This document shows, in pieces, positions 1 to 22,630 of a stretch of 64,000 nucleotides of DNA. The stretch is from positions 1 to 64,000 of the IMG/VR virus record IMGVR_UViG_3300038520_001354. One strand, given 5' to 3'. The notes below the pieces were generated by a model. That model had not been told where the DNA came from and made no database searches. It saw only the letters and a program-made list of their open reading frames with translations. Every line of letters starts with the position of its first letter. Position 1 is the stretch's first letter. The position numbers and the translations under genes are program-made. Source of the stretch: a virus. Its lineage: Duplodnaviria > Caudoviricetes.

Positions 1-25
1 ACTTGCTACGATTTACTGATACGGC

Positions 26-247
26 ATGTCTGCTGAGAAAGAGGCATTAGAACATTTAAATCAGATATTCACCATAATCAAAGAAACCCTCCAAGATGTA
101 AATAAAGAACGCCCAAATATGCGAGAACTTACAAATGAGGAGAAACAATCTTTATCAAAAATAACCAAAAATATACAGTTAGTAAGGTCAAAACTGAACA
201 AATACTTAAAAAGTTTCCGTGTGCAAACCTCATTAGACGATTTTTAA
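26..247 (+). CDS. Small helical protein with C-terminal PIP-box-like motif
   Basis: ORF track, 73 aa; ends QTSLDDF (QxxLxxF). Confidence 0.6.
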   Translation: MSAEKEALEHLNQIFTIIKETLQDVNKERPNMRELTNEEKQSLSKITKNIQLVRSKLNKYLKSFRVQTSLDDF

Positions 248-371
248 AACAAATACTGAACAACGATTTATCACGGCGGCCAAACTTATAATCTTTAAAT
301 AAACAAAATTAAATGAATAGTTTTTATTCTGGGAATACAAATGATAAATTTTAAATGAGGGCGCAAGTGGC

Positions 372-400
372 AAAAAAATTCCACCACATTTTTTGAGAAA
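372..400 (+). repeat. 29-bp direct repeat, copy 1 (imperfect palindrome)
   Basis: aaaaaaattccaccacattttttgagaaa; 27/29 identical to 782-810. Confidence 0.85.
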
Positions 401-417
401 ATTAAGGATATGATAAC

Positions 418-774
418 ATGACTTGGCAAGATATATTGAAAAATACAAATTTCAATTTATATGAAATCAGAAGCAGGTTTGGTAAAGAAACCGCAGAAGA
501 AGTGGAAAGAATGATTTATCTTAGAGATAATGAAGATATATTGTTTGAATTGATTAATGACATAGAAAGAAATAAAATTAATTTTGGTCTTAAAGAGGCC
601 ACTAAAAATGCAGTGAATAACCTTAATCCATCAAGTAAATATGATGGTGATATTTTCTTTTATAATTTAGATTTAGACAAAAGAGAGAAATATGAAAGAT
701 TCAAGAAAAACCCGTCTGTTATTATTGATGATGAACTAAACGCTATGTTGTCAGGATTTGCAGGAGACATTTGA
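418..774 (+). CDS. Hypothetical protein with WxxILK leader
   Basis: Starts MTWQDILKN. Confidence 0.85.
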   Translation: MTWQDILKNTNFNLYEIRSRFGKETAEEVERMIYLRDNEDILFELINDIERNKINFGLKEATKNAVNNLNPSSKYDGDIFFYNLDLDKREKYERFKKNPSVIIDDELNAMLSGFAGDI

Positions 775-781
775 AGGCAGT

Positions 782-810
782 AAAAAAATTCCGCCAAATT
801 TTTTGAGAAA
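782..810 (+). repeat. 29-bp direct repeat, copy 2
   Basis: aaaaaaattccgccaaattttttgagaaa. Confidence 0.85.
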
Positions 811-849
811 TTTTACTTCATTATGGACAAATAATAGGAATTGGTTATT

Positions 850-1065
850 ATGACATGGAAAGATATAATTAAGAATGAAGAAAATGTATCTAATTTCATT
901 AAACTAGCAAAGGATAATATGGACAAGTTTGATAAAGATGAGAAAAAAATAGTTAACTATTTAATTAATTCTTTAGAAAATAAATATGACAAAAACACAT
1001 TTGAAGCACTAAGGTTTGAATTAAAGAAAAAAGACTTACTTCGTGCTAAAGGAAGGATAGGTTGA
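850..1065 (+). CDS. Hypothetical protein with WxxILK leader
   Basis: ATG at 850 gives MTWKDIIKN. Confidence 0.8.
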   Translation: MTWKDIIKNEENVSNFIKLAKDNMDKFDKDEKKIVNYLINSLENKYDKNTFEALRFELKKKDLLRAKGRIG

Positions 1066-1070
1066 TTAAT

Positions 1071-1220
1071 ATGACATGGAGAAATCAAATAACTAAAATG
1101 ATGACTCCATTAGATGCTTTAGATGAAATAGCAGATTTAATCAAAAAAGACGCATCTTCAGAAGAATTAAACAGATGGCTAAGAAAAGCGATTCAAGCAG
1201 GACATATAAGAGATGATTAA
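1071..1220 (+). CDS. 49-aa protein with variant leader (not in ORF track)
   Basis: Hand translation MTWRNQITKMMTPLDALDEIADLIKKDASSEELNRWLRKAIQAGHIRDD. Confidence 0.7.
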   Translation: MTWRNQITKMMTPLDALDEIADLIKKDASSEELNRWLRKAIQAGHIRDD

Positions 1221-1221
1221 T

Positions 1222-1329
1222 ATGACAAGATGCAATTTACTTGATACTTGGTTTGACGCTAAATCTAAAGAATTAGATAAGGCAGAAAAAGAAAAGAAAA
1301 GAGATTTAATTACAGGTGAAAAGAAATGA
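1222..1329 (+). CDS. 35-aa protein (not in ORF track)
   Basis: MTRCNLLDTWFDAKSKELDKAEKEKKRDLITGEKK; ATGA overlap with next gene. Confidence 0.6.
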   Translation: MTRCNLLDTWFDAKSKELDKAEKEKKRDLITGEKK

Positions 1330-1553
1330 CTTGGCAAGATATATTGAAAGAACAAATAAAACACTATAAGGAATTGCCAAAAAATATGCCTGATGCAACG
1401 AAATATGATTTTGCCGTTGATAAAGGAGAAGAAAAATCAAGATTGGCTTTTGCTAAAGAAATGCTTGAAGAAAAATTTAGTAATAAAACTCATAAGATAA
1501 TAAGTTATAATGACGATTTTGGACAAATGTTTTACAGGATTATTAAGAGATAG
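1326..1553 (+). CDS. Hypothetical protein with WxxILK leader
   Basis: Starts MTWQDILKE; first 24 nt identical to gene at 418; GGTGA SD. Confidence 0.85.
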   Translation: MTWQDILKEQIKHYKELPKNMPDATKYDFAVDKGEEKSRLAFAKEMLEEKFSNKTHKIISYNDDFGQMFYRIIKR

Positions 1554-1564
1554 GGTGAGAAGAA

Positions 1565-2659
1565 ATGATTATTAGGAAAATGGGAGAAGTAATGCGTGGT
1601 GACGAATTAGACACTGCCGCAAAAGAAGAAATTAAAGGATATGCAGAAGATTATGTGGATAAACTCAATGTTCCATCATCTGAAAGAAAAGAACTACTTA
1701 GTTTAATTCAAGAAGGAATGATGGGAAGATTTTATGTTAGAAATCAAAGGGCTGCTGGTGAAGTTAGTGAAAAGACAGGAAAAGAATATTCTCTAATTGC
1801 ACCATCAAGAAGATTAGGTTATGAAACTGAGGCTGAAGCAGAAAATAGAAATGCTACTCAAGTAAGGGCTGCGGCAGTTTCAAGAAGTAAAAGATTTAAG
1901 CCTGAAAAGACAGTTAATGAAATGTCATCCGAAATTACAACACAAGTTGCTGAAGATGAATTAAGAGAATTAGCAGCAGAAATAAAAGACACTAATCTGA
2001 AACAGGCTTTAGATAGAATGGTTCTCACCTTTACTCAAGAATTATCATCAGATAAGCAACACGCAGAAAATAGAAAGACAGTGGATAAATATGTTAAGGA
2101 AATGCGAGAAATGATAGAATTGGATGAAAGTTATACTCAAGATGATTTCCAAGCGATGAGTGCGCTTTTGTCTAAATTAAAAGGAAAACCTTTCTTTGAT
2201 AAACTTCATCGTATGCAAATAGAAGAAATACTTGGACAAATGGCTAGAAAATTAAGATTCGATGATAGTAAGAATGCTTCTTGGCAAGATTCATTAAAGA
2301 AAAGTAAACTCAAGAATTTGATAATGAGATTTGAAAAAGATGTTTTGGGAGATTCTGATGATTTGCCAATGGAGTTCAATAAGAGTGAAGATTGGCAAAA
2401 TGTTGTCAAAAAAAAACTAACATTTAATTCTATATCAGAGATTCACGGACATATTGATGAAATGGAAGATATGCTATATGATTTAATGATGGCAGATAGA
2501 TATGTGCTTTATATGGAAGATTTGTCCAAAGACCTGAATTATATCAGACAAGAAAAAGATTTACAAGCAGCGACAGAAATGTTTAATGGATTGCGAAATG
2601 AAATTAATAGATTGTATGATGATTACAATAAATCAACAGGAATGCTATACGATATTTAG
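1565..2659 (+). CDS. Hypothetical protein with two internal leader-like motifs
   Basis: 364 aa; internal SWQDSLKK and DWQNVVKK; GGTGA SD. Confidence 0.85.
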   Translation: MIIRKMGEVMRGDELDTAAKEEIKGYAEDYVDKLNVPSSERKELLSLIQEGMMGRFYVRNQRAAGEVSEKTGKEYSLIAPSRRLGYETEAEAENRNATQVRAAAVSRSKRFKPEKTVNEMSSEITTQVAEDELRELAAEIKDTNLKQALDRMVLTFTQELSSDKQHAENRKTVDKYVKEMREMIELDESYTQDDFQAMSALLSKLKGKPFFDKLHRMQIEEILGQMARKLRFDDSKNASWQDSLKKSKLKNLIMRFEKDVLGDSDDLPMEFNKSEDWQNVVKKKLTFNSISEIHGHIDEMEDMLYDLMMADRYVLYMEDLSKDLNYIRQEKDLQAATEMFNGLRNEINRLYDDYNKSTGMLYDI

Positions 2660-2667
2660 GTGATTAA

Positions 2668-2844
2668 ATGAGTTGGCGAGATATAGTTAAACAATGGGAT
2701 GAACGGGAAATAATGAGCCGTGTCCAAAGAACAGGCTATTGTCGCAGGTGTCAACAAATGGTAACTAAATATCAAGAATGTAATTTGAAATTACCTGCAC
2801 CTTCAAGTGGAGTTAAACCTAATTGCCCAATGAGGGAGGAATGA
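2668..2844 (+). CDS. 58-aa Cys-rich (possible Zn-binding) protein with leader (not in ORF track)
   Basis: MSWRDIVKQ...CRRC...C...CP; AGGTGA SD. Confidence 0.75.
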   Translation: MSWRDIVKQWDEREIMSRVQRTGYCRRCQQMVTKYQECNLKLPAPSSGVKPNCPMREE

Positions 2845-2846
2845 AT

Positions 2847-3704
2847 ATGTCTTGGCAAAAAATCCTAAAAGTCGAAGATATAGACTTTGATGGTGCTATT
2901 GAGGGTTTTGGGCATTATTCTATGGCTGTTAGTCATCCTACTCCTGAAAGAATGGCAGAATTATTATTCTTTGGAAGTCAAACAGGTAAAGCCCCTGCTC
3001 TAAAGGATTTCATAGAAGAAGAAATTAGAATTAATCATAAGAATGCTTATCAGTATCTCAAACAAAGAAATGAGCGAGAACCCACTGAAAAAGAAATAAC
3101 TGAGTTTATTATTAGAACTATTATGCACGAAGCGACTCATGCTGCTATGGGCTTTGAACAACAAGCAATGGCTGACCATCAAAGAGAATATGGCGCATTT
3201 ACAGGACAATTCCCTAATGAAACTTATTATAGATTAAAATCGTTCGTAATGCACCCTGCAACAGAACCAAGACTATTGCATCCCATGTTAGAACAATTAC
3301 TTGAAATTCAAGGAACTATCAAGATAGATGCAGTTGACAAGGTAAAAGATATTATTGGATTTGTTGATGCTTTAACTAGTGATTTAGATGCGCCTTCATC
3401 AAAAATAGAAGAATTTAAAGAAAAATTTGCTAGATTAGAAATACAAGCAAGAGGTCAAGGAAAATCTTTAATTAGAGACATTGATAAAAGAAAGGTAGGT
3501 TATGACTTTTTCATTGATAGATACGGTGAAGAAAATAAAGATTTCATAATGGATTATGTAAGTGTTTTAATGGGTCGTAAAATGACGGCAGAAGATTTTG
3601 AAAGAGCCGAAAAAATGGCTGGAACAGTTACTACTACATCAGCCCCCGCTATGTTTAATAAGGTAGTTAGGGGTCGAAAAAAGAAGAAGAAGAGGGATGA
3701 GTGA
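2847..3704 (+). CDS. Putative zincin metallopeptidase with WxxILK leader
   Basis: MSWQKILKV start after GGAGG; HEATH (HExxH) with downstream E (REYGAF); basic C-tail. Confidence 0.7.
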   Translation: MSWQKILKVEDIDFDGAIEGFGHYSMAVSHPTPERMAELLFFGSQTGKAPALKDFIEEEIRINHKNAYQYLKQRNEREPTEKEITEFIIRTIMHEATHAAMGFEQQAMADHQREYGAFTGQFPNETYYRLKSFVMHPATEPRLLHPMLEQLLEIQGTIKIDAVDKVKDIIGFVDALTSDLDAPSSKIEEFKEKFARLEIQARGQGKSLIRDIDKRKVGYDFFIDRYGEENKDFIMDYVSVLMGRKMTAEDFERAEKMAGTVTTTSAPAMFNKVVRGRKKKKKRDE

Positions 3705-4843
3705 TGGTAAAAGAGAAAAAGAACTTCAATCCACATAAAGGCAATAAAGTCAATCAAGGCGGAGGAAAGTTTCCTTTCGTTGATGAGTTTAATACTTGGA
3801 GGAAAAACTGCCAAAGTATTTCCGGTGGAGATTTGCAACTAAAGTATGTTGATAATTTGTATGTTTTCTTGAGAAATCATATGCAAGGAAATATACGAAC
3901 AGGAAGCCGTAACGAAGGATTAGACGGAGAAGGTGCTATTCAGTTCCTTTCGGTTATTGAGGATTTTATTGACAACAATTTATTTACTGTTGCTCAAGCC
4001 AAACTTATTGAAGGAATGGCAAAAAGATTAGAACAAATGAAAGATACAGGTAAAGATGCCGGAGGAAAAACTCCTGCTTTTGACCCTGCTTTTATTCTAT
4101 TTACTGAAACTGATTATAGCGGAACAGGAGAAAAACTCCGTGAAAGAAAGGTTCAAGGACATTATGCGACAGAATGGTATGTTAAGAATAATCCTGATAA
4201 GGGAGTTAGTAAAGTTCCCGATGATTGGATGGCTGGAAATAATCCTCCCCATCAAGCATTATTTTCAGAATCTTCAACAAAGTTTGCAAAACCAAGAGGA
4301 CTATTGTATATTATGCAAGATGCTGCAAAAGAATTAGATGAAGTTGAAATAGATGTTGTTATTGATAATCTTCCACAAGGCGTGGATGCAGTTGATATTG
4401 ACGAAATAAAATCTGTTGAGCAATTCTTCAATGCTGCAATTAAGAATCAATCTTTTTGGACTAATGGTGGTAAATTAAGAACACAGAAACTTAGAAAAGA
4501 ATTAGAAGCAACTGAGTTCAAGGTTAAACCTAATGAACAAGCCCCTACAAGAGAAATCACAAATCTTGGAAAAGTTGATGAAAGAGATGCAATTGCAGGA
4601 AGAATTGTTAGTTTCAGATTAACTGCAACTGCTACTCCTATTATTGAATTAGTTGACAGAGCATTGAAGAGAGCAAATACTAATAAAGCACCTAATGGTT
4701 ATAGAGCATGGCAAGGAGATACAAAGCGTGGATTCGATTACAGAAAAACCGCAAGAGAAAAATTCGGTGAAGATACAGGAAGATATAATCCTAATCAAAA
4801 GGTATTATCTAAAATGTGGCAAATGAATCTTTGGAGGCGATAA
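3704..4843 (+). CDS. Hypothetical protein
   Basis: 379 aa; ends SKMWQMNLWRR (leader-like). Confidence 0.8.
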   Translation: MVKEKKNFNPHKGNKVNQGGGKFPFVDEFNTWRKNCQSISGGDLQLKYVDNLYVFLRNHMQGNIRTGSRNEGLDGEGAIQFLSVIEDFIDNNLFTVAQAKLIEGMAKRLEQMKDTGKDAGGKTPAFDPAFILFTETDYSGTGEKLRERKVQGHYATEWYVKNNPDKGVSKVPDDWMAGNNPPHQALFSESSTKFAKPRGLLYIMQDAAKELDEVEIDVVIDNLPQGVDAVDIDEIKSVEQFFNAAIKNQSFWTNGGKLRTQKLRKELEATEFKVKPNEQAPTREITNLGKVDERDAIAGRIVSFRLTATATPIIELVDRALKRANTNKAPNGYRAWQGDTKRGFDYRKTAREKFGEDTGRYNPNQKVLSKMWQMNLWRR

Positions 4844-4844
4844 T

Positions 4845-5159
4845 ATGTTATGGAAAAAGATATTAAAAATAGATATGGAAGAAGCCCGAAGATTAGGTGA
4901 TAGATATGCACCTGAAGATATGGAACAAGGCAGACAAGATAGAATGTCAACAATTATAACAGAAAGAGTTCCCGCCATTAGAATGACTCTTGAAAGGTAT
5001 ATAGATACTAATGACCCTGATAAAATATTAAATTTTAGAGAGGCTATTATTTCTTTAATAAGAGATTTACCTAATCCTCCGAGATTATCAAGAAGAACTG
5101 ATTATGAAGGTAAAATGAAAAATTATCATCTTGTTGATGGGTATTTAGATTCGTTGTGA
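4845..5159 (+). CDS. Hypothetical protein with WxxILK leader
   Basis: MLWKKILKI; GGAGG SD. Confidence 0.8.
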   Translation: MLWKKILKIDMEEARRLGDRYAPEDMEQGRQDRMSTIITERVPAIRMTLERYIDTNDPDKILNFREAIISLIRDLPNPPRLSRRTDYEGKMKNYHLVDGYLDSL

Positions 5160-5163
5160 TATT

Positions 5164-5829
5164 ATGACTGTTAATCGTAAAAGGTGTGGTTTGTGTCAAG
5201 CCCCGAATAGAGAAGAGTTAGAGGCTTCTCTTGAAATGGGAAGTGTTACTTGTGATGAGTTAGATACAATTCACAATTGGCGAAGTGGAACTACTGCACA
5301 ACATCAAAGAAATCATATGGGAGAATACAAAATGTCATCAAATCCTAAGTGTGTTCTATGCACAGACCCTATGAGAAAACATTACGAACAAGCGTTAAAA
5401 GAAGGTAATATATCAAGTGAGGCTGTTTCTTCTGCCCTAAACACCACAAAATCACAGGTGCAAAGACACATGAAGCACCACTTGACACCAATCGTGCAAG
5501 AATCCGCAGCCGCTATCATAGCGAAAAAGGAAGTAAATGAAGTTGAATTGCTATCAAACAATGTTGCTAAGTTAGATACTCGTTTAGAACAAGTTTTCAA
5601 CAATTTGGGGAATGATTTAGACCCTAAGATGATTGATGCCTTAACTAAGTTAGCAAGAGAGATTAGAGAATCTTTAAAATATCTTATGGAATTTAAAGGC
5701 AAATTGGTTCACAAGAGACAAGATACAATTATTGTCGCACAAATGCAAATTGTTCAAGAAGTGCTTGCACAGAACAATCCTGAGATTTGGTTGGATATTA
5801 AGAAAAGAATGCAGGAGAAGTTACAATGA
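5164..5829 (+). CDS. Tandem Zn-finger/HTH protein with coiled coil (candidate terminase small subunit)
   Basis: Two CxxC...HxxxH units (CGLC..HQRNH; CVLC..HMKHH) then a helical region; TerS role is inference. Confidence 0.5.
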   Translation: MTVNRKRCGLCQAPNREELEASLEMGSVTCDELDTIHNWRSGTTAQHQRNHMGEYKMSSNPKCVLCTDPMRKHYEQALKEGNISSEAVSSALNTTKSQVQRHMKHHLTPIVQESAAAIIAKKEVNEVELLSNNVAKLDTRLEQVFNNLGNDLDPKMIDALTKLAREIRESLKYLMEFKGKLVHKRQDTIIVAQMQIVQEVLAQNNPEIWLDIKKRMQEKLQ

Positions 5830-6302
5830 CTTGGTTTTCGGTAATTAAAAAACCGAGAGTTGTAGGAGAAAAATACGGAATTAAAATAGACGAATATTTT
5901 TCTGATTCTATGAAAGAAAGTTACTATGATAATGATGTATATTTGAAAGACGAAATATGGGCACAAATATCTAATTACCCTTCTGATATGAAAATTATAG
6001 AAATGAATCTTGATAAAGGACAAAGCATAGATAAAGCCATTGAAGATGTAGTTAGAAAATATAGAGACTTAATTGATAAAGCAGATAATGAAATGTGGGA
6101 TGATGAAATCATTGAAGAAAAATTAGGCAGAAAACTAACTCCACAAGATTATGAAAGAACGAAAAGTTTTGAAGATGAAATAATAACTAATGTCGCAATA
6201 AGTCGGCTAATTATGAATAATGATAGAGCAAGAGAACTAATGGTGTATTCTATGAGACTAAGATTATTTTTAGATGAATTGATAAGGAGGCAAGAGGAAT
6301 GA
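5826..6302 (+). CDS. Hypothetical protein with leader
   Basis: MTWFSVIKK. Confidence 0.8.
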   Translation: MTWFSVIKKPRVVGEKYGIKIDEYFSDSMKESYYDNDVYLKDEIWAQISNYPSDMKIIEMNLDKGQSIDKAIEDVVRKYRDLIDKADNEMWDDEIIEEKLGRKLTPQDYERTKSFEDEIITNVAISRLIMNNDRARELMVYSMRLRLFLDELIRRQEE

Positions 6303-6481
6303 AATGGGAAGATACAATGAAAAGATACCCTCTTAGAGAAAATCGTGGCGAAAGCAGTTTTTATACTAAGAGAAAATTAAGAGCATTATTAGATTTATTA
6401 AACAGTGATATGGAACCTACTTCTAAAGTAGCACAAGCACAAGGTTTTATTGAAAGTATGTTAAAGCAGATGAGTGAGTAA
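6299..6481 (+). CDS. Small protein with variant leader
   Basis: MKWEDTMKR. Confidence 0.75.
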   Translation: MKWEDTMKRYPLRENRGESSFYTKRKLRALLDLLNSDMEPTSKVAQAQGFIESMLKQMSE

Positions 6482-6482
6482 T

Positions 6483-6752
6483 ATGTCTTGGCATGATATA
6501 ATTAAACTAAGGCAAGATTCTTGGAATGCCTTAACTCAAGTAATCATAGGAGAGTATGATTATGAGTTATGGAAAGATACTCCTATTCCTGAAGAACTAA
6601 AAGAAATGAAAAAGGAATACGATAAACAACCCGAAGATATTCAAAATACAATTAGGAATATGTTACAAGAGGGTAGTTTAGTAAATGATGAAATGAGAAT
6701 GGGAATATTTTCAATTATCATGGGTATTTTAAACAATGCTGGGTTCAAGTGA
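6483..6752 (+). CDS. Hypothetical protein with leader
   Basis: MSWHDIIKL. Confidence 0.8.
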   Translation: MSWHDIIKLRQDSWNALTQVIIGEYDYELWKDTPIPEELKEMKKEYDKQPEDIQNTIRNMLQEGSLVNDEMRMGIFSIIMGILNNAGFK

Positions 6753-6756
6753 TAAT

Positions 6757-8991
6757 ATGTCTTGGTTTGAGCAACTTAAAATGGTTCCTAGAGATAAGTT
6801 TTCTTTAGGTTATGTCATTGTAAATGCTGCTGAAACAGAAAAAGCCGTCAATGAAATAAAAAATCTTACAAAACCACCGCAAGCACTCAAAAGTTTGTTG
6901 CTTTCTATTGAAAATAATCAATTGAGTTTGGAAGAACTAAAGGAAACTTTTGGACAACCGCCTCATGGCGACCAAACTTTAGAGCAAATGAGAGAAAATG
7001 TTCAAAAAATCAAAAATGCTTCAAAATTATTGACTCTTTCAGAAGTCCGAGAGTTAATAAAAGAAGCCCTTGAAGCAAAAAGAAACACAAATCCTCAAAA
7101 AGTTAAGGAAATTTTGCAAAATTTAGACGAAAATGCTGATTTAAGCAAGAGAACCTTACAAAGACACCGTGATATTAGAGATTCTTTGGATATTTTACGA
7201 ATGTCTAACGATAAATCTGTAATAATGTTTGAAAATCCTCCATCAGATAAGAAAATTTTAGAAGAATTTGCAAAATTATTAGATGGAGAGGTTGTTGGAG
7301 ACACAATCGCTGTTAATTTTAAGTCTCAATCTGAATTTATTGCAGCGATGGTTCCTAAAAAAGAAGATTCTGATGCAATTAAAGAAAAAAAGTCAGAAAT
7401 TAAAGAAATGTATAACAAACATTTTAGAAAATCCGGCTGGTCACTAAGCATTGGACAAAAAACTGTGGATTTGAACAATTTAGTCGCTCAAAAGAAGATT
7501 TTTGTTGCTTCGGGTCAAAAATTAGAAGTCGTTGAGCCATTTACAGGTGCTTCTGTATTAAAATATATTAGAGCCGTTGATAAAGTAACAGGAAGTGTAA
7601 GAGCCTTTAGACCAAAAAGACTTCCTAATGGTTCAACTGTTCCTAAAGTTTTATTTTTGGATAAAGCCAGCCCTAATTCTATGAATTTAAATCCTTATGC
7701 TAAGTTAATTCTAACTAGTGACTTTTCTGGTGATGAATGGTTTAAGACTTTCTTTGATGTATTAAGAACTAACCAAATGTTAAGTGAAAAGGATGCAGAA
7801 CAATTAATTATTCAAGAAATCTATGAAACTTTGATGGGAAATGAAAATACTACTCCAAGTGGATTAAGTGTTTCCACTTTTAGAGGTGCTGATGGAATAC
7901 AGGATTTAGAAACTAAAACTCCTAAAAAGGTTAGAGCAGAAATTAGAAGTATTATTGACGAAAGTGCCCGACTAGAAGATACTATTATTAATGCTGGATT
8001 ACAACTACAACAAGAACAATTACAATACCTTGAAGGTAATTTTACTCTCAAAGAGGCGGCTGATTTTAAGAAATTTTACGAATCATTAGACCGAGAAGAT
8101 TTTCCTTTAGAAGATTTAGAAATAGAATACTTCAAAGATGGCCGCCCTACAAAATATGAATCAGATAAAGTTGATGAAGAAGGAAATCAAGTTAGAGATG
8201 AAAGTGGTGCAATAGTTACACAAACATTATCTGGTATTGAAAGGGCTAACTATGCTACTATTAAAATAGAAGGCGAAACACTTTCTCCTGAAGATGCTTA
8301 CGAGTTCGGTCTTAAAGTTACTTCTCCTGAGTTTACAGAAGAATCCACTAAAAGAACAGAAAAAACCATAGATACTATGAATGCTTCTTTAAATGCTGCT
8401 AAGACTAGATTGGCGAAAGTTCCTAAAGATAAAGCGGATTTACGAGAAAGATTACAAACTAAGATTTCTAATTTAGAAGAGAGAATAAAGAACGCTAAAA
8501 GTAAAATTACTGAAGGTAAAGATAAAACTGATATTGGTCAGCAAACTGCTAAGTTAAGAAATGAACTTTTAAACATGGATGATTTTTCACAATATCTTAT
8601 AGCAACAAGTAATAAACTTAAAGGCGAAGGAGGTCTAATTGGTTTGGTTTCTAAGATAGAAAGGTCTGCTTCTGCATTAGAGCAAATTACTCCCGAAAGG
8701 AGTTTAGGGTTCTTCGCACAGTTGGATGAACATGCAGGTAATAACGATGTGAGGGAAGCGTTTAAGGTCATAGACGACAAGCCGGAATCAGACGAGGCGA
8801 AAGACGCTGCTAAAGAGTTAAATGATAAAATGCCAAACATTCTTTCTAATGCGAAAGAACAACTAATTGGTGCATTTAAATTACATTTAGAAAAGTTTGC
8901 TAAGAATCCTGCATCATTCCCCGACAATCAAGTTATTTCTGCTAAAAAACAATTTGTCGATAAACAGAATCTATTAACATTAGGTGAGTAA
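6757..8991 (+). CDS. Large helical/coiled-coil protein with leader (candidate internal head or ejection protein)
   Basis: MSWFEQLKM; 744 aa; no recognisable catalytic motif. Confidence 0.75.
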   Translation: MSWFEQLKMVPRDKFSLGYVIVNAAETEKAVNEIKNLTKPPQALKSLLLSIENNQLSLEELKETFGQPPHGDQTLEQMRENVQKIKNASKLLTLSEVRELIKEALEAKRNTNPQKVKEILQNLDENADLSKRTLQRHRDIRDSLDILRMSNDKSVIMFENPPSDKKILEEFAKLLDGEVVGDTIAVNFKSQSEFIAAMVPKKEDSDAIKEKKSEIKEMYNKHFRKSGWSLSIGQKTVDLNNLVAQKKIFVASGQKLEVVEPFTGASVLKYIRAVDKVTGSVRAFRPKRLPNGSTVPKVLFLDKASPNSMNLNPYAKLILTSDFSGDEWFKTFFDVLRTNQMLSEKDAEQLIIQEIYETLMGNENTTPSGLSVSTFRGADGIQDLETKTPKKVRAEIRSIIDESARLEDTIINAGLQLQQEQLQYLEGNFTLKEAADFKKFYESLDREDFPLEDLEIEYFKDGRPTKYESDKVDEEGNQVRDESGAIVTQTLSGIERANYATIKIEGETLSPEDAYEFGLKVTSPEFTEESTKRTEKTIDTMNASLNAAKTRLAKVPKDKADLRERLQTKISNLEERIKNAKSKITEGKDKTDIGQQTAKLRNELLNMDDFSQYLIATSNKLKGEGGLIGLVSKIERSASALEQITPERSLGFFAQLDEHAGNNDVREAFKVIDDKPESDEAKDAAKELNDKMPNILSNAKEQLIGAFKLHLEKFAKNPASFPDNQVISAKKQFVDKQNLLTLGE

Positions 8992-8992
8992 A

Positions 8993-11455
8993 ATGGTTGA
9001 GTTAACAGAAGAACAAATAGGAATGCTTAACCTATCTCCAGAAAAAATTAATGATTTGGCTACTGCTAATCCTCTTCAACGAAAAAGCACCACTAATAAA
9101 ATTATTAGAACTTTAGAAGATAAGTTAAGAGATAAAGCAAGAGGCTCTTCTAATCAAAAAGAAGAACTTAAAAAGATTCCTGACATAATATCTGCTGCAA
9201 AAAAGTATATTAAAGACCAAATAAAAACAGGCGGAAGAGTTGCGAGAGATACCCAAGCCGCATTTGATACCTTTTTGCGACCTTTAACAGATATGAATTT
9301 GTATGTTGATGGCAATAAAATTAATGAAAGTTATTTATATAATCAATCAATTACAGGTAAAATTCAGATTAGAAATCCTAAGCCTGAAAATATGAAAGAT
9401 AAACAGGTCATGGCAGCATACGAAGCAGAAGCAACGCCACAAGCATTTAAGGATAATTATGATAAAATTCAACAAACTTTATCTGATATGATGAATGTTA
9501 GTGAATATAAGAAGGTAAGCGATATACCTATAAATAAGTTCTTAGGTGCAATTGATGTATCTAAAGCAACTAATAGAATAGAAGTCTATAATTATTGGGC
9601 AGAGATAGGAAATAAATATAATGAATTTGCTGATGCCTTAACTGATTTCTTTGTAGCAGTTGAAAAAATTAATTGGGAACCAGAAGTTAAAAAGGATTTT
9701 GATAAACTATATAGAGATGTAGCAACTGTTAATTTAGAATATATTGCTATCTTTGAAAATATTCCGAAGAATTTTGAATCAGCCCACCTTAGATTTTTTA
9801 ATTTAATTGCCGGAAGATTAGCAACAGAAAGATTACTTTCTATGGAAGATGAAGGAGTATCTTACGCTGATGACCCTGTTGAATATGCTGATGTTAATTC
9901 AGCATTAGCAGAAGAATTACAGTCAGAAGTAGCAGCATCTAGCAGCACACAAGGAGATACAATTGACCCCCGACAATGGGAAGAAATGCTTGATACTCAA
10001 GTTTCTTGGGATGAAACAATAATAGAAATTTTAGGTAATGCCGACCCTTTGTTAATTTATGAATATAACAAAGGTGATAAGTTATTAGGTATTAATGACG
10101 AAATGGAGGCGGCTCTTTTAGATGTTCTTCAAAATATTGAAGAAGAATTAGATGAAGGTCAAGGAGTTACTTTAGATACTAGAACTAACATTGAAGAATG
10201 GTTAGAACAATTAGAAGATACTAACATTCTTGAAGAAGGTGATGTGGATATAATGGCGTTACCTATTTCTGTTATGATGAATAAAGACTTTGCTGATATG
10301 TATGGAGGAAAAGATAATAAATTCACTTCAGTTGATGAAAAAGAAGATATAAGTTCTGATAATTTAGATGCTATTAAAAACTTCTTTAATGACTTATATC
10401 TTTTACTTATTAGTGAACCATTTAGAATGGAAGTCGAAGCAAGAAGCACTAAAGGAAGAAGAAGGGGTAGTGTTCAAGAGTTTAGAGAAGCAGCAGGGAC
10501 TTCTATGGAAGGATTAACAGGTGGTGCAAAAATTCCTATCTCTATGAATCAAGCAGGAGAATTAAGGGGAGAATTACAGCCATTTAAAGAAGAATTACAA
10601 AAGATGATGGATTTGGCAATTCAATATTATTTTGACCCTATTTACAGTGGCCGCCTACCAATTGAAATCCCTAACTTTGCGTCAAGTATTGGTTCAAAGG
10701 TTATGCAGGTATTAAGTTTAGATTTGGGATTAGAAACTGTAATGTCTGCTTCTTACGATACTCTTATGGAAGGTTCAGTCGAAGAAATTGATTCTGGAGA
10801 TATGAGAGCAATTGCTGATTTCTTAGAAAATATCTTTATGCCCGAAATAAAAATAGATGCTGATATTATTACTCAAGGTGAATTTGCTGCTGATGCACTA
10901 ACCGAAATATTTGGCCGTGAAGAAGCAAATAATGATTATGCTGCTGCTTTGATTTTTCACTTTATGGTTGAAACAGATGATTTAAGTCGTGGTAATAATG
11001 ATTTTAATGGACAAACTATTGCTGAAAGAGCAGAAAGATTTGAAGAAGATTTTAGAAATAGAAGGGCATTTCCTATATTCGCATTACCACATTGGTTAGA
11101 CCAAAATCAAGGTATTCTAACTAAAAAGAGTAGTGCTTCTAAAACACAATACAATAGATTAAAGGCTATCTTTGAGAATGCTCAAACTGATTTACCTGTT
11201 CTATTACATAAACTTTTGAAAGCCCATGATGCAGTTAGAAAGGAATTAGGTCTTGAAGTAGTATATGGGTTTGTTCCTCTTAATGAATACGGTATTGATA
11301 AAATGATTACTAAGATGCAGATTGATGAGAATATTGATTTAAGTTATCTTGAAGTTGAACAAATAGTAAAAGCAGTTGATTCTCACGATAGTATATCAAA
11401 AGAATATGGTATTAGTAAAGAACAAGTATATTTAATTAAAGCAAACTTTAGGTGA
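8993..11455 (+). CDS. Large acidic protein
   Basis: 820 aa, very D/E-rich; C-terminal LLKA, IVKA, LIKA motifs. Confidence 0.8.
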   Translation: MVELTEEQIGMLNLSPEKINDLATANPLQRKSTTNKIIRTLEDKLRDKARGSSNQKEELKKIPDIISAAKKYIKDQIKTGGRVARDTQAAFDTFLRPLTDMNLYVDGNKINESYLYNQSITGKIQIRNPKPENMKDKQVMAAYEAEATPQAFKDNYDKIQQTLSDMMNVSEYKKVSDIPINKFLGAIDVSKATNRIEVYNYWAEIGNKYNEFADALTDFFVAVEKINWEPEVKKDFDKLYRDVATVNLEYIAIFENIPKNFESAHLRFFNLIAGRLATERLLSMEDEGVSYADDPVEYADVNSALAEELQSEVAASSSTQGDTIDPRQWEEMLDTQVSWDETIIEILGNADPLLIYEYNKGDKLLGINDEMEAALLDVLQNIEEELDEGQGVTLDTRTNIEEWLEQLEDTNILEEGDVDIMALPISVMMNKDFADMYGGKDNKFTSVDEKEDISSDNLDAIKNFFNDLYLLLISEPFRMEVEARSTKGRRRGSVQEFREAAGTSMEGLTGGAKIPISMNQAGELRGELQPFKEELQKMMDLAIQYYFDPIYSGRLPIEIPNFASSIGSKVMQVLSLDLGLETVMSASYDTLMEGSVEEIDSGDMRAIADFLENIFMPEIKIDADIITQGEFAADALTEIFGREEANNDYAAALIFHFMVETDDLSRGNNDFNGQTIAERAERFEEDFRNRRAFPIFALPHWLDQNQGILTKKSSASKTQYNRLKAIFENAQTDLPVLLHKLLKAHDAVRKELGLEVVYGFVPLNEYGIDKMITKMQIDENIDLSYLEVEQIVKAVDSHDSISKEYGISKEQVYLIKANFR

Positions 11456-11459
11456 TAAT

Positions 11460-11579
11460 ATGAAGTGGTGGAATTTTCTTAAAAAATTAACAAAGACCTG
11501 TCCTGTTTGTGGAACAGAAAACGAAAAGGATGCTAAAAAGTGTAAAAACTGTGGTGCAGATATTTCTGATGTGAAGTGA
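11460..11579 (+). CDS. 39-aa zinc-ribbon protein with leader (not in ORF track)
   Basis: MKWWNFLKKLTKTCPVCGTENEKDAKKCKNCGADISDVK; AGGTGA SD. Confidence 0.8.
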   Translation: MKWWNFLKKLTKTCPVCGTENEKDAKKCKNCGADISDVK

Positions 11580-11583
11580 TATT

Positions 11584-11787
11584 ATGAAGTGGGAAGAAGT
11601 ATTAAAGAAGAAAAAGAAATCAACCGTCAATCAATCAGGTAACTATACAAAACCCGGATTGCGTAAAAGAATTTTTAATAGAATCAAAGCGGGAACAAAA
11701 GGTGGTGCAGCCGGTCAATGGTCTGCAAGAAAAGCACAAATGTTAGCGCAAGCGTATAAAAAGGCTGGTGGTGGCTATAAAAATTAA
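11584..11787 (+). CDS. Basic protein with leader; DUF5872-like N-terminal half
   Basis: MKWEEVLKK; YTKPGLRKRI..GGAAGQWSARKAQMLAQAYKKAGGGY, family recognised from memory. Confidence 0.75.
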   Translation: MKWEEVLKKKKKSTVNQSGNYTKPGLRKRIFNRIKAGTKGGAAGQWSARKAQMLAQAYKKAGGGYKN

Positions 11788-12052
11788 TTGGCGTGATATT
11801 CTCAAAGGTAAATCTAAAAGGCAACAAGATTTAACCCAATGGACAAATGAAGATTGGGGAAGTGCTGAACAACATAGAGCCAAAGATAAAGGTAAAAAGC
11901 CCAAGTCTAAAACTAAAGGAAGATATATGCCAAGAGCAACTTACAAAAGAACAGATAAAAAGACACTAAGATACCAAGACGCAAAGAAAAGAAAAGGTCG
12001 AAAAGCAGGAAAACAGCATGTTCCAACAGGAAAGAAATTTAGTCAGAAGTGA
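11783..12052 (+). CDS. Basic protein with leader; probable ATT start (GTG at 11768/11771 possible); resembles C-terminal half of DUF5872 proteins
   Basis: (I)NWRDILKG; QQDLTQWTNEDW..GRYMP..GKQHVP. Confidence 0.7.
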   Translation: MNWRDILKGKSKRQQDLTQWTNEDWGSAEQHRAKDKGKKPKSKTKGRYMPRATYKRTDKKTLRYQDAKKRKGRKAGKQHVPTGKKFSQK

Positions 12053-12056
12053 TACT

Positions 12057-12473
12057 ATGAATTGGAAAGATATTTTAAAAGCAGAAGAAAAAGCCCATTG
12101 TGGCTCAGAAAAAGCCGATGATGAGAAAGAAGAGTTTGAAAAGAAACTTATTGGTAATCAAAAGAGAATTGATGCTAATAAGGATGGTAAAATTACCGGA
12201 GAAGATTTCAAATTATTAAATAAAGGTAAAGATTCCACATTAACTGAAAAAACGAGGAAAGAACTAGAAAAGGCTACGCAAATGGTTCTTCGTGAAATTG
12301 AAAAAGAAGGCGGTGCTTTGGGTATGAAAAACCTAGATAAAATCTTTAGAGATAAACCTGAATTAGCAAAGAAGGTATTAACTAAACTAAAGAAAGAAGG
12401 TAAAATCTTTGTTCACCAAGATGGAGATATTTATACTCACAAACCAAGTCGAGGGAGAGGATTTACCGCATGA
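12057..12473 (+). CDS. Leader-tagged protein with EF-hand-like loop and C-terminal wHTH-like part
   Basis: MNWKDILKA; DANKDGKITGED loop. Confidence 0.75.
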   Translation: MNWKDILKAEEKAHCGSEKADDEKEEFEKKLIGNQKRIDANKDGKITGEDFKLLNKGKDSTLTEKTRKELEKATQMVLREIEKEGGALGMKNLDKIFRDKPELAKKVLTKLKKEGKIFVHQDGDIYTHKPSRGRGFTA

Positions 12474-12811
12474 GTTGGAAAAATCTCCTAAAAGCAGACC
12501 CCAAAAAAGGAACAGGTAAAAAACCTAAAGGTTCTGCAAGGAGATTATATACAGACGAAAACCCAAAAGATACTGTTTCTGTTAGTTTTAAAACTCCAAA
12601 AGATGTAAGAGATACATTTTCAAGTTCAGCGTTTAAAGGTAAATCACATAAAAGACAATCACAAATTATTAACTTAGTTGAACAAAGAGCAAGAGTAGCG
12701 GCTAAAAGAGCAAAAGACCCAAAAGCAAAAAAGAGATTAAATGCTGCACATAAAGTCGCTTTAGCAAGAAAAGAATCAAGTAAAAGAAAAACACAGAGGA
12801 TGAAAAAATGA
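12470..12811 (+). CDS. Highly basic protein with leader
   Basis: MSWKNLLKA; K/R-rich. Confidence 0.8.
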   Translation: MSWKNLLKADPKKGTGKKPKGSARRLYTDENPKDTVSVSFKTPKDVRDTFSSSAFKGKSHKRQSQIINLVEQRARVAAKRAKDPKAKKRLNAAHKVALARKESSKRKTQRMKK

Positions 12812-13209
12812 GTTGGGAAATAATTTTAAAACAATTGGCTTGTCCTATGGCAACACAAGATTTGATGCTTAATACTAAAAATAGAGATGCCGCAGTTAAA
12901 AACCCTAACATTAGATATGGCCCACTTAATCTAGAAGATGAAGAATATTGGGAAGAATATGGTAAGAGATGGAATACTACTGCGGAAGTAGCAAAAAAAT
13001 CTAATTGTAGTAATTGTGTAGCATTTGACATTTCTCCTAGAATGGAGGATTGTATGCCTTTAGAATTAGATGATGATGGCAGATTAGGATATTGTTGGAT
13101 GCACGATTTCAAATGCCATTCTGCAAGAACCTGTTATACATGGGCTAAAGGCGGCCCGATTACTGATGATAAGAGGTCAAAAGAAAATCAAATGAGGAAG
13201 GAAAAATGA
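12808..13209 (+). CDS. Cys-rich metal-binding protein with leader
   Basis: MSWEIILKQ; CSNC, GYCWMH, KCHSARTC. Confidence 0.8.
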   Translation: MSWEIILKQLACPMATQDLMLNTKNRDAAVKNPNIRYGPLNLEDEEYWEEYGKRWNTTAEVAKKSNCSNCVAFDISPRMEDCMPLELDDDGRLGYCWMHDFKCHSARTCYTWAKGGPITDDKRSKENQMRKEK

Positions 13210-13496
13210 CTGAATGGCAAGAAATTTTGAAAAAGAAAAAGAAGCCATTCAAAGGCTACAATAAAAAAATTCACGCAAGAACGGGAGGATTAAGTGCTAA
13301 AGGTCGTGCTAAGTTTAAGCGTGAACAAGGTTCTAATCTAAAACCTCCCGTTACTACTAAACCTAGTAAATTGAAACCCGGAAGTAAAGCGGCTAAAAGG
13401 CGTAAATCTTTCTGTGCAAGGTCAAGAGGGTTTAAGCGTGATGATGGCACTTATAGTGAAAAAGCGAAAGCAGCAAGAAGAAGGTGGAATTGTTGA
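13206..13496 (+). CDS. Highly basic protein with leader (DUF6321-like, from memory)
   Basis: MTEWQEILKK; GGLSAKGRA..NLKPPV..RRKSFCAR..RRWNC. Confidence 0.7.
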   Translation: MTEWQEILKKKKKPFKGYNKKIHARTGGLSAKGRAKFKREQGSNLKPPVTTKPSKLKPGSKAAKRRKSFCARSRGFKRDDGTYSEKAKAARRRWNC

Positions 13497-13837
13497 TGAA
13501 TTGGAAAAAAGTATTGAAGTTTGATAGAGCAAAAAAACTGCCTTATGAGGAAGAACAGGCTCACATGCTAAGTCGGAGAGAAAAAAGAAGAAAAATGGGA
13601 TTACCGCCAACTAGACGGGATAGAATTTTGGGAACGGCAGGAACTCCAAGAAGTGAAAGGGTTCATAGAATGAAACCCGAAGATAGGCCAAAACCAAGAA
13701 AAAAAGACCCTTTTGATGAATTACCTGAACCAAAAACAGAACAGGAAAAAGCAATAAGAATGCTAATGTCACCTCATTCAAGAAGAAAGCCACCTAAAAT
13801 GGGAGATAGAGGCCGACAGGGATTTAGAGGTCATTGA
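13496..13837 (+). CDS. Basic low-complexity protein with leader
   Basis: MNWKKVLKF. Confidence 0.75.
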   Translation: MNWKKVLKFDRAKKLPYEEEQAHMLSRREKRRKMGLPPTRRDRILGTAGTPRSERVHRMKPEDRPKPRKKDPFDELPEPKTEQEKAIRMLMSPHSRRKPPKMGDRGRQGFRGH

Positions 13838-13838
13838 T

Positions 13839-14132
13839 ATGAATTGGAAAAATATTCTAAAGGCGCAAAGAAGCCTAATTGATTTTGGTCTTGAACCTAA
13901 AAGCACTAATCTTGCAGGAATGCAAAGAGATGAGGCTATGACTCAAGAAATCGCTCAAATGCGAAATAAACTACAACAGAATGTAGGAAGGATGAAAACA
14001 CAAATTAATCAAAAGACTGTTGACTTGGCTACTCATCGTTTAAATCAACTAAAAGAAATAGAATCAATGAGTTTTCCAGAAAATGTTGAAGCGTTTAAGA
14101 AATTCAAACAAGAATATTCAGTTAATTTCTGA
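13839..14132 (+). CDS. Leader-tagged protein with PIP-box-like motif
   Basis: MNWKNILKA-QRSLIDF. Confidence 0.8.
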   Translation: MNWKNILKAQRSLIDFGLEPKSTNLAGMQRDEAMTQEIAQMRNKLQQNVGRMKTQINQKTVDLATHRLNQLKEIESMSFPENVEAFKKFKQEYSVNF

Positions 14133-14141
14133 GGGATAATT

Positions 14142-14711
14142 ATGCCTAAAGTCTTGTCTGCCATATATTCATATGAAGATATGAAAGAAAAATGGTCGCA
14201 AGATAATCCTAATGATGCCCCTTATACTCGTAGGCCGGATTTAGAATCTGGTATTTATGAATTAGATAAATGGATTATTCGTGTAAATGATGAAGGAAAA
14301 ACAATTTCCACTGTTGGTTGGAAAGAACATCCTTCACATACAGTAGTAGGAGGAATGCTTGCTACCACTGAAGGGAAGAAAATAGGTCAAAATAATCGTG
14401 TATTAAACGATGCAAGAGAACCACAGTTAAACCAATCAAAACCTTTAGTTGCTGCTTTTGGATTTAGAGATGGAGATAATGCCCGTTGGATTGCTAAAGC
14501 AAAACAAAACGGTTGGAAATTTCCAGATGATTCTGAATTTGAACAAATGAAACAATTACTTCCTGAATCAGTTTTTAATGAATGGAATAGTGCATATCCT
14601 AATGGCAATTGGGCTATTCGTTCTATTCGTGGTGAAGGAGAAATGGCTAAATGTGTTTATCTTGACGACCCTATTCCCGATTGGTTTAATATGTTAAAAA
14701 GGAGGAATTAA
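14142..14711 (+). CDS. Possible GNAT-fold protein with C-terminal leader-like motif
   Basis: Pattern GKTISTVG..VVGGM..GKKIG..QNGW; ends DWFNMLKRRN. Confidence 0.45.
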   Translation: MPKVLSAIYSYEDMKEKWSQDNPNDAPYTRRPDLESGIYELDKWIIRVNDEGKTISTVGWKEHPSHTVVGGMLATTEGKKIGQNNRVLNDAREPQLNQSKPLVAAFGFRDGDNARWIAKAKQNGWKFPDDSEFEQMKQLLPESVFNEWNSAYPNGNWAIRSIRGEGEMAKCVYLDDPIPDWFNMLKRRN

Positions 14712-14712
14712 C

Positions 14713-15300
14713 ATTAAATCTTGGAAAAAAATTCTAAAGGTTTTGCCTCCTGAAGATTGGGATGATTACGGAGGATATACTGAAGTTGACGGAACTCATG
14801 TTCAATTTCCTCCTAAAAGAAAAGATTATGGAACTATTGCTGCAATAGTTAGAGGACATTATCAAGATAGAATAATTAATAACACCAATAATCATGGAAC
14901 TACTTCTCGAAATACAGATGAAATAGAAGGTTGGGTTCGATGTGTCATTAATTATCCAAGAGGAAAATATTTCTTTTATAGAAACGATAACCCTAATAGT
15001 TACTCTATTATTTTAGTTGATATTATTGTTCAAGGAGATAAATTACCTAATACTAAAGATAAAGTTTTAAATCAAAGTATTAAAAATGCAGATGGAGAAG
15101 TTATCACAAAGATGATTATATTTACAAACTATTTTAACAATAGAAGAGGTATAATACCACAAAGAAGATTTATTCCGTGTAATGGACAAAATTCATTAAA
15201 AAGATTAAATATGCCTAAACCCAAAAAAGAAAGAGAACCAACTAATATATTTTCTGTGAAACCTAATCTAAGAGGTTCAGCACGAAGGAGTCGAAGATAA
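14713..15300 (+). CDS. Hypothetical protein with leader; probable ATT start
   Basis: In-frame (I)KSWKKILKV upstream of the track's TTG at 14743; GGAGG at 14701; in-frame TAA at 14695. Confidence 0.7.
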   Translation: MKSWKKILKVLPPEDWDDYGGYTEVDGTHVQFPPKRKDYGTIAAIVRGHYQDRIINNTNNHGTTSRNTDEIEGWVRCVINYPRGKYFFYRNDNPNSYSIILVDIIVQGDKLPNTKDKVLNQSIKNADGEVITKMIIFTNYFNNRRGIIPQRRFIPCNGQNSLKRLNMPKPKKEREPTNIFSVKPNLRGSARRSRR

Positions 15301-22268: not shown

Positions 22269-22630
22269 CTTGGGATTTCTATGGAGATGGAGAAGATTTT
22301 GTTTTAAAAGAAAAGAAAGAAAAACCAAAAGAAATACTAGATTCAATGGATAGCAAAGCGAGAAAGAGACTTAAAAAAACTCTTCAAGCGGCTGAACCTA
22401 CTGAATTTTTTGGTCAAGATTTTACTAAATTAGGTGAATTAATTACTGTTCTTAGAGAATTAGATTTAACTAAGTCAGACAAGAAGTTAAACAAGAAAAT
22501 GAAATCAATGGATGAGCGCAACATTGATATTGTGGCTACGGCTACGAAGTTGCGTAAAGAATACGAATTACTTTACAGGCAATTACGAGATTTAGTTTAT
22601 CCTAAAGGAAAAGGGAGAGATAAGAGATGA
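22265..22630 (+). CDS. Hypothetical protein
   Basis: ATGA overlaps on both sides; starts MTWDF. Confidence 0.75.
   Translation: MTWDFYGDGEDFVLKEKKEKPKEILDSMDSKARKRLKKTLQAAEPTEFFGQDFTKLGELITVLRELDLTKSDKKLNKKMKSMDERNIDIVATATKLRKEYELLYRQLRDLVYPKGKGRDKR

Follow-up and report, generated by a model that had tools for sequence, protein, structure and literature searches.

A short N-terminal peptide on many unrelated proteins of a magrovirus-type virus resembles its scaffold tail and is a candidate head-loading signal

Results

IMG/VR virus record IMGVR_UViG_3300038520_001354 is a 94,643-bp genome (G+C about 33%) of a tailed virus of the Caudoviricetes, and the window analysed here is its bases 1–64,000. 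Between positions 418 and 15,300 of the window, 21 open reading frames (ORFs) for otherwise unrelated proteins carry the same short peptide, M-x-W-x-x-[IV]-[IL]-K, which opens the ORF or falls no more than six residues from its start and is called the leader or tag below. The peptide is conserved as protein, it resembles the extreme C-terminal tail of the virus's own protease-scaffold protein, and copies of it stand at C-termini and at the junctions of fused modules. We propose, by analogy and with a little less than even confidence, that the scaffold tail was copied to give a portable docking peptide, which would recruit accessory proteins into procapsids much as the capsid-targeting sequence (CTS) of phage T4 does.

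The leader peptide and its distribution in the genome

A preliminary description of this DNA had listed 21 ORFs with a common leader, and the peptides it gave are present at 21 of the 21 start sites. Seventeen of them are canonical (M-x-W-x-x-[ILV]-[ILV]-K or M-x-x-W variants); among the deviations, the site at 1071 has one additional residue (MTWRNQITK), and position 6 is T at 6299 and Q at 6757. The starts listed at 11783 and 14713 are ATT codons. The real start of the first of these two ORFs is probably a GTG at 11768, which places the motif at residues 6–13, and the ATT start at 14713 is plausible because GGAGG lies 6–7 nt upstream of it; a Shine-Dalgarno-like GGAGG or GGTGA in fact precedes each of the 21 sites.

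Translated in six frames, bases 1–16,000 contain the strict motif M-x-W-x-x-[ILV]-[ILV]-K 14 times, compared with a mean of 0.03 and a maximum of 1 over 200 shuffles, and the motif is absent both from bases 16,001–64,000 and from the other 30 kb of the genome. Counted by gene, it is on 17 of the 24 called plus-strand ORFs up to 15,300 and on none of the 126 ORFs elsewhere. The replication genes, which lie on the opposite strand, are untagged, in agreement with the earlier claim that tail and replication genes lack the leader. Also as claimed, similarity stops at residue 8 and the proteins behind it are unrelated: the 21 bodies have no mutual BLAST similarity except for one marginal 25-residue match. 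One short N-terminal peptide is common to otherwise unrelated proteins of one virus, a feature by which targeting systems of the T4 type are recognised.

Conservation at the protein level

Codon usage within the leader was analysed in 427 distinct start regions from relatives, and the codons do vary, as had been asserted. Leu7 is encoded by all six leucine codons (TTA 89, CTA 63, TTG 57, CTT 56, CTC 32 and CTG 12), codon 7 carries 0.22, 1.96 and 0.14 bits of information at its first, second and third positions, respectively, the second base is almost fixed in both codon 6 and codon 7, and Ser2 is encoded by AGT as well as by TCT and TCA. At the amino acid level, K8 is present in 445 of the 467 ORFs whose other positions fit the motif (a count in which W3 is set by the search pattern), and W3 is present in 445 of the 516 ORFs that match the motif when it is searched without W3. 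Conservation of the leader at the protein level is thus well supported. A nucleotide-level translation signal, the explanation that the preliminary description had itself held up against its proposal, is rejected because the codons vary and because copies of the motif are also found at C-termini and inside ORFs (below).

Relationship to the scaffold tail

The S78 prohead protease-scaffold fusion protein (26412–27641, plus strand; Pfam Peptidase_S78) ends in a tail, ..AEMEWSDIHKMVGGY, that is nearly invariant in 120 close homologues (M[DE]W[SA]DIHKM[VA]GG) and that homologues at 39–60% identity keep in the form [ML]-[SD]-W-x-[DE]-[IVL]-[HNE]-x-[LMA]. It is a short motif at the extreme C-terminus that is conserved beyond the rest of the scaffold region, which is the pattern of a scaffold tail, and it has M-[ST]-W-x-[DE]-[IV] in common with the leaders.

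A second tail of this kind, ..SSMDWSDIHKMVSDME, ends an 82-residue head-module protein (22627–22875, plus strand) that has counterparts in other clades, and in these positions 7–11 of the tail follow those of the scaffold tail. The paired tails at these positions are HKMV/HKMV in the window and NELV/DELV, NDVI/NDIV and H-x-IVE/N-x-IIE in other clades, and a relative at 45% identity has the pair MSWEEVHQLA and MSWEEIHEMA. This co-variation argues, as far as sequences can, that the scaffold tail and the 82-residue protein's tail serve one shared binding partner.

In a neighbouring head-module protein (22265–22630, plus strand) the tag is split by an insert (MTW-DFYGDGED-FVLK). Members of its family in the window's own clade have MTW, eight residues and F[IV]LK, and orthologues elsewhere begin MTWQEILK, which suggests that the tag may consist of two parts, with an MxW anchor in front of a separate [IV]LK site. 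An ILK before and an FDILK after the protease domain of the protease-scaffold protein were considered as autocleavage sites and set aside; their conservation extends to very distant S78 proteases, and they are probably structural strands.

Copies of the motif away from the N-terminus

A position-specific scoring matrix made from the leaders was scanned across the whole genome. Among its five best matches that are not N-terminal are two internal sites of an untagged 364-residue ORF (1565–2659, plus strand; ASWQDSLKK at residue 239 and EDWQNVVKKK at residue 276), the extreme C-terminus of the 82-residue head-module protein (..MDWSDIHKMVSDME), the C-terminus of the protein encoded at 14142–14711 (..PDWFNMLKRRN) and that of the protease-scaffold protein (..MEWSDIHKMVGGY). 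In relatives, W-x-x-[ILVM]-[LIVM]-K occurs 54 times internally and 13 times at a C-terminus, mostly at module junctions, and most of these copies belong to the family of the 14142–14711 protein. Copies that are not N-terminal often have K-K or K-S where leaders have M-S.

The 14142–14711 family has a conserved domain of about 180 residues with the motif always at its end; W181 is invariant and K186 is present in at least 90% of the sequences, down to about 20% identity. The window's member (plus strand, 189 residues) ends in the motif (..DDPIPDWFNMLKRRN*), and in relatives 0–504 variable residues follow it (for example at L004:6868-8754, L015:7917-9998 and L009:8616-9995, where L numbers denote related loci). 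The order in L004 is domain, motif, module, motif, module, and its first module is the body of what in the window is a separate tagged gene, 14713–15300. In their arrangement, the variable extensions in relatives resemble polymorphic multi-domain phage head proteins.

This protein is predicted to be a GNAT-fold acetyltransferase. Its AlphaFold2 (AF2) model (pLDDT 86.5, pTM 0.80) retrieves GCN5/PCAF and bacterial GNATs in Foldseek with an E value of 7e-6 and a probability of 1.00, as well as phage GNATs; a sequence-family search of the same protein gave no Pfam or NCBIfam match. The family has an invariant GG and the stretch G-R-x-I-G-G-N, and their fit to acetyl-CoA motif A (Q/R-x-x-G-x-G/A) is inexact. 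In the model, the tag motif forms a terminal helix that lies beyond the confidently folded part and is itself of low confidence. The idea that the tag is a substrate of this neighbouring GNAT was rejected, the GNAT being missing from three of the five genomes with tag arrays.

Tagged families in related viruses

In 80 loci whose terminase is 83–94% identical to that of the window, 547 tagged ORFs lie on the structural strand versus 3 on the other. Eighty further loci around more distant proteases were added, and the total set of 164 related loci, with IMG/VR copies in place of the metagenome record behind L084, contains 686 tagged ORFs in 220 body clusters; of these clusters, 133 were confined to a single locus and 18 spanned at least five. 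Five other complete genomes (94–103 kb) from different clades have 8–12 tags each, again on the structural strand, and a reversed control pattern gave 0 matches in these five.

The tagged bodies are small (median 100 residues) and very hydrophilic, are almost never membrane proteins, and are acidic about as often as basic. Almost none belongs to a family: Pfam searches covered 20 window proteins and 150 cluster representatives and matched only a few of the latter, PHROGs and NCBIfam gave no matches to tagged bodies, and ESM Atlas gave none that were usable. About 20 related loci (e.g., L046:7799-8371, L056:784-1359 and L014:7890-8462) have a tagged, soluble PAP2-like phosphatase of 191 residues that lacks membrane segments and has the complete signature K-x6-RP / PSGH / SR-x5-H-x3-D; none was detected in the window.

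A search for a host counterpart of the tag with a degenerate DNA pattern in 185,579 species genomes gave, among the matches listed, only scattered single matches in unrelated taxa; Poseidoniales were not targeted in it, and a host-derived motif is possible. The magrovirus literature that was searched makes no mention of an N-terminal leader.

Tagged genes of the window

All of the window's tagged genes are on the plus strand. The array opens with 418–774 (MTWQDILK, 118 residues), 850–1065 (MTWKDIIK, 71 residues), 1071–1220 (the variant MTWRNQITK, 49 residues) and 1326–1553 (MTWQDILK, 75 residues), and, beyond the untagged 364-residue ORF (above), continues with 2668–2844 (MSWRDIVK, 58 residues) and 2847–3704 (MSWQKILK, 285 residues). 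The 285-residue protein has no family match, and the label of protease that it had been given finds nothing to support it in Pfam, PHROGs or ESM Atlas. Next come 4845–5159 (MLWKKILK, 104 residues), 5826–6302 (MTWFSVIK, 158 residues), 6299–6481 (the variant MKWEDTMK, 60 residues), 6483–6752 (MSWHDIIK, 89 residues) and 6757–8991 (the variant MSWFEQLK, 744 residues).

A second run of tagged genes starts with a 39-residue zinc ribbon at 11460–11579 (MKWWNFLK; Pfam E 8.5e-8) and a very basic 67-residue protein at 11584–11787 (MKWEEVLK); both the zinc ribbon and the basic proteins (pI about 11) had been described correctly, in which they differ from the supposed protease. The ORF with INWRDILK behind its GTG start (11768–12052) overlaps the preceding tagged gene by 20 nt and lies in the +1 frame relative to it (11584–12052 for the pair). 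Upstream of its motif, a stretch (..K[CR]WLKRIKGLVVAI..) is open and conserved in many relatives, and this may be a mere reflection of the overlapping gene or may point to a frameshift fusion.

Behind it are 12057–12473 (MNWKDILK, 138 residues, with a weak EF-hand-like stretch), 12470–12811 (MSWKNLLK, 113 residues, basic), 12808–13209 (MSWEIILK, 133 residues), 13206–13496 (MTEWQEILK, 96 residues), 13496–13837 (MNWKKVLK, 113 residues, basic), 13839–14132 (MNWKNILK, 97 residues), which is a distant paralogue of the 22265–22630 head-module family, and, beyond the GNAT gene, 14713–15300 ((I)KSWKKILK, 195 residues, with its probable ATT start), whose body in relatives is fused behind the GNAT motif. 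The 12808–13209 protein belongs to a conserved Cys/His-rich family with C12, C67, C70, C82, C96, H99, C103, H104 and C109 invariant, and from this pattern it is probably metal-binding; the AF2 model of the family (pLDDT 35) is unusable. The very basic 13206–13496 protein is DUF6321 (Pfam E 3e-16) and so is among the very few tagged bodies with a family.

Head genes and gene context

Nearly all genes are on the plus strand up to about 51.5 kb, and the remainder are on the minus strand. The genes between 1326 and 18392 are packed with gaps of 11 nt at most, and many of them overlap by 1–4 nt; the tag array is therefore contiguous with the gene for the large terminase (15300–16730, plus strand; Pfam), which overlaps the last tagged gene by 1 nt. 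The portal protein (18776–20413, plus strand; Pfam) follows, and in several other clades tagged genes, including those of a conserved family of 107–109 residues, lie between the portal and protease genes.

Directly downstream of the protease-scaffold gene is that of an HK97-fold, SU10/HCTV-1-like major capsid protein (27643–28992, plus strand; Pfam), the proposed receptor of tails and tags, whose nearest cultured relatives are haloarchaeal tailed viruses at about 24% identity. In its N-terminal 31 residues (27643–27735) K30 is invariant and L29 nearly so (..ALLK|SAG..); the pattern matches the ends of leaders and could be a candidate maturation cleavage site.

Between the portal and protease genes, 23447–26368 encodes a 973-residue protein with an ATP-dependent DNA ligase domain (PF01068, E 1e-29), and a ligase inside the structural module is a trait reported for magrovirus groups A and B (PMC5434244). 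Magroviruses are reported to be dominant in the archaeal virome of surface seawater (PMC5434244). Together with the thousands of marine homologues of the S78 protease, this head-module ligase identifies the virus as a magrovirus.

Beyond the window, the minus strand encodes a minimal ThiF/E1-like protein of about 192 residues (G000:C1:74934-75395; PF00899, E 1e-16), and this protein is conserved in each of the five complete magrovirus genomes that were tested. Two of these five have a weak JAB-like match that lies under the family cut-off.

Discussion

The docking role proposed at the outset would work as follows. The leader probably forms a short amphipathic helix, one side of which would present W3, I6 and L7, and it would be a copy of the head-assembly docking motif of the S78 protease-scaffold tail and of the small scaffold-like protein's tail. 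Wherever it stands, at a gene start, at a domain end or between fused modules, it would dock the attached protein inside the assembling procapsid, most likely at the site on the capsid protein that binds the scaffold tail. A large and fast-changing set of small soluble proteins, with a few enzymes among them, would thereby be enclosed in the head and would enter the next host cell with the DNA. Lys8, near-invariant in leaders and absent from the scaffold tails of other clades, may be a cut site of the head protease. We propose a shared docking role because the leader resembles the scaffold tail, the tags lie in a head context and the bodies are portable. The preliminary description had likewise suggested that the leader loads capsid cargo. 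Its portable, protein-level tag on unrelated proteins stands; the link to the capsid is circumstantially supported, by tail likeness, gene context and small, soluble, fast-changing bodies; and the roles in DNA condensation or delivery that it attached to the cargo are conjecture, the bodies being as often acidic as basic and including enzymes.

Several points weigh against this proposal. Capsid binding, packaging, cleavage and delivery are all inferred, and the gene context would also fit any late function. A load of at least 20 cargo species in each virion would be unusually large for a genome of about 95 kb. Positions 7–8 of the leader are L-K in all clades, whereas those of scaffold tails are H-K, H-N, N-E or N-D, so that the two motifs, alike only in M-x-W-x-[DE]-[IV], could have different partners; from the constancy of L-K across clades we take the leader to be related to the tail but distinct from it, with a role of Lys8 that is specific to leaders. 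The 195-residue tagged protein encoded directly upstream of the large terminase occupies the usual place of a small terminase, a kind of protein that would not be packaged. Leaders and the tail motif are both missing from the cultured relative HVTV-1, whose virion proteome is thus uninformative. A complex prediction for the capsid protein with one tagged protein scored 0.00; it was run without controls and speaks neither for nor against binding.

The near-invariance of Lys8 in leaders but not in scaffold tails would also suit a tag that is an enzyme recognition or processing site and has no part in packaging, whether a viral or host protease cuts after W-x-x-I-L-K, releasing modules from precursors and trimming N-termini, or the Lys is modified covalently, for example by acetylation or by joining to a ubiquitin-like protein of the virus. 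Such a site would fit the internal copies that stand exactly at the junctions of fused modules, as in the GNAT-motif-module-motif-module order of L004, and the split tag of the 22265–22630 protein, which retains MTW and F[IV]LK and suggests separable elements; the ThiF/E1-like gene in five of five complete genomes tested and the precedent of phage 80alpha and the protease Prp (PMC5744158) point the same way. However, the motif-bearing GNAT is in only two of the five genomes with tag arrays, and the tag is therefore independent of it. The E1-like gene co-occurs with every conserved gene, that of the protease for example, and sits in the opposite-strand block, so its link to the tag is weakly informative. 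An enzyme site also leaves the likeness to the scaffold tail unexplained, and tails at the extreme C-terminus keep the motif though there is nothing behind it to release. Processing and packaging are moreover compatible, since the T4 targeting sequence does both, and we judge processing or modification without packaging to be unlikely.

Short amphipathic helices at a terminus serve generically as docking modules, and the partner might be a hub other than the capsid, such as the portal or terminase, a viral replication or assembly compartment, or a host machine such as a chaperonin, the proteasome or the ribosome; the tagged proteins would then act inside the cell, in host takeover or against defences, and would not be virion cargo. 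Like typical phage host-takeover genes, the bodies are fast-changing ORFans, the array of tags stops at the terminase, and a motif-bearing gene always adjoins the terminase. This reading is nonetheless rather improbable, given that similarity to the scaffold tail indicates a partner in head assembly, that other clades have tagged genes within the head module, and that the genes are contiguous with late structural genes and lie outside the opposite-strand replication block. Very improbable, and largely refuted, is a function at the level of the nucleic acid, in which the peptide itself would be functionless and its DNA or RNA would serve as a translation-start enhancer or as a recombination junction for the shuffling of cassettes. 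The genes are translationally coupled with Shine-Dalgarno-like GGAGG or GGTGA upstream, and fused and unfused arrangements differ exactly at the motif, but synonymous positions are free (0.22 and 0.14 versus 1.96 bits in codon 7, and both AGT and TCT/TCA for Ser2), and the same peptide is kept at C-termini and inside ORFs, where a start signal is superfluous.

The docking proposal can be extended to a general loading code of magroviruses, in which proteins that bear the peptide would be packed, would lose it to a cut of the HK97-type protease behind the Lys, and would be injected along with the DNA, each virus drawing about 20 effectors from hundreds of interchangeable and for the most part unknown ones, with enzymes such as a phosphatase and an acetyltransferase among them. 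We consider this extension doubtful; if true, the injected arsenal would be far above that of any known virus of such genome size, and the system would be the first of its kind in archaeal viruses. Most magrovirus genes have no known function, and an eight-residue tag would give a common fate to a fifth or more of them and would flag hundreds of proteins as possible injected effectors or counter-defence proteins of uncultured archaea. Were the tag a loading signal, HK97-type viruses with S78 proteases would have evolved T4-like targeting independently by copying the scaffold tail, and it would be a minimal peptide for putting foreign proteins into HK97-fold shells; were it an enzyme recognition site, it would belong to an undescribed protein-processing or -modification system in archaeal viruses. 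What is new here is the motif at C-termini and fusion junctions, the tails that change together, and the gap-free packing against the terminase.

Comparison with known systems

Encapsulins bind diverse cargo on the inner face of their HK97-fold shell through short terminal peptides, and a comparable loading is what we propose here. Encapsulin peptides, however, are usually C-terminal and of another sequence, and they serve a cellular compartment with one or few cargo types, whereas the virus has genes for a terminase, a portal, a prohead protease and a tail. In herpesviruses the C-terminal tail shared by the protease-scaffold UL26 and the smaller protein UL26.5 binds the major capsid protein, and in the pair formed by the scaffold of Staphylococcus phage 80alpha and SaPI1 CpmB a second protein reuses the scaffold's capsid-binding tail (PMC5644958). 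The window resembles both in having a protease-scaffold and a smaller protein with the same short C-terminal tail. It differs in that reuse there is by scaffold-like proteins only, whereas here a related motif is on the N-termini of hundreds of unrelated proteins, and capsid binding here is proposed by analogy. Phage 80alpha offers a second parallel, in which unrelated phage proteins, those of capsid and scaffold, carry an N-terminal motif like that of ribosomal protein L27 that is cut by the host protease Prp (PMC5744158). Both cases have a conserved N-terminal peptide on non-homologous phage proteins, removed there by a specific protease; the 80alpha motif, however, copies a host ribosomal protein and is cut between F and A by a host enzyme, whereas the virus described here encodes its own head protease.

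The closest parallel is with the T-even phages, in which one capsid-targeting sequence is found on diverse, fast-evolving internal proteins (PMC3012670, PMC9026906) whose bodies are thought to be counter-defence proteins (PMC3012670). In T4 the 10-residue N-terminal peptide directs internal proteins to the prohead core and is removed by the head protease (PMC9026906, PMC3012670); its residues 4 (aromatic) and 7 (hydrophobic) govern targeting, and residues 8 and 10 govern processing (PMC9026906). The T4 peptide (on IPI-III and Alt) and the leader are alike in being short, N-terminal and common to otherwise unrelated, fast-evolving proteins. They are alike in pairing an aromatic residue with a hydrophobic one three positions on (4 and 7 in T4, W3 and I6 here) ahead of a candidate protease site (L7-K8 here), and in having enzymes among the known or proposed cargo (Alt in T4; here the phosphatase of relatives and the GNAT with its C-terminal motif).

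The differences lie in sequence, protease and scale. The T4 CTS is MKTYQEFIAE, to which the leader consensus has no apparent resemblance on inspection. The head protease is of the S78/HK97 type here and gp21 in T4, and the putative P1 residue is Lys here versus Glu. T4 has a handful of such proteins; here a genome has about 20 tagged genes, and the 164 loci together have 220 families. In this archaeal virus the motif also has C-terminal and junction copies and a likeness to the scaffold tail. The system, as proposed, is thus one that works like the CTS but stands outside the T4 CTS family.

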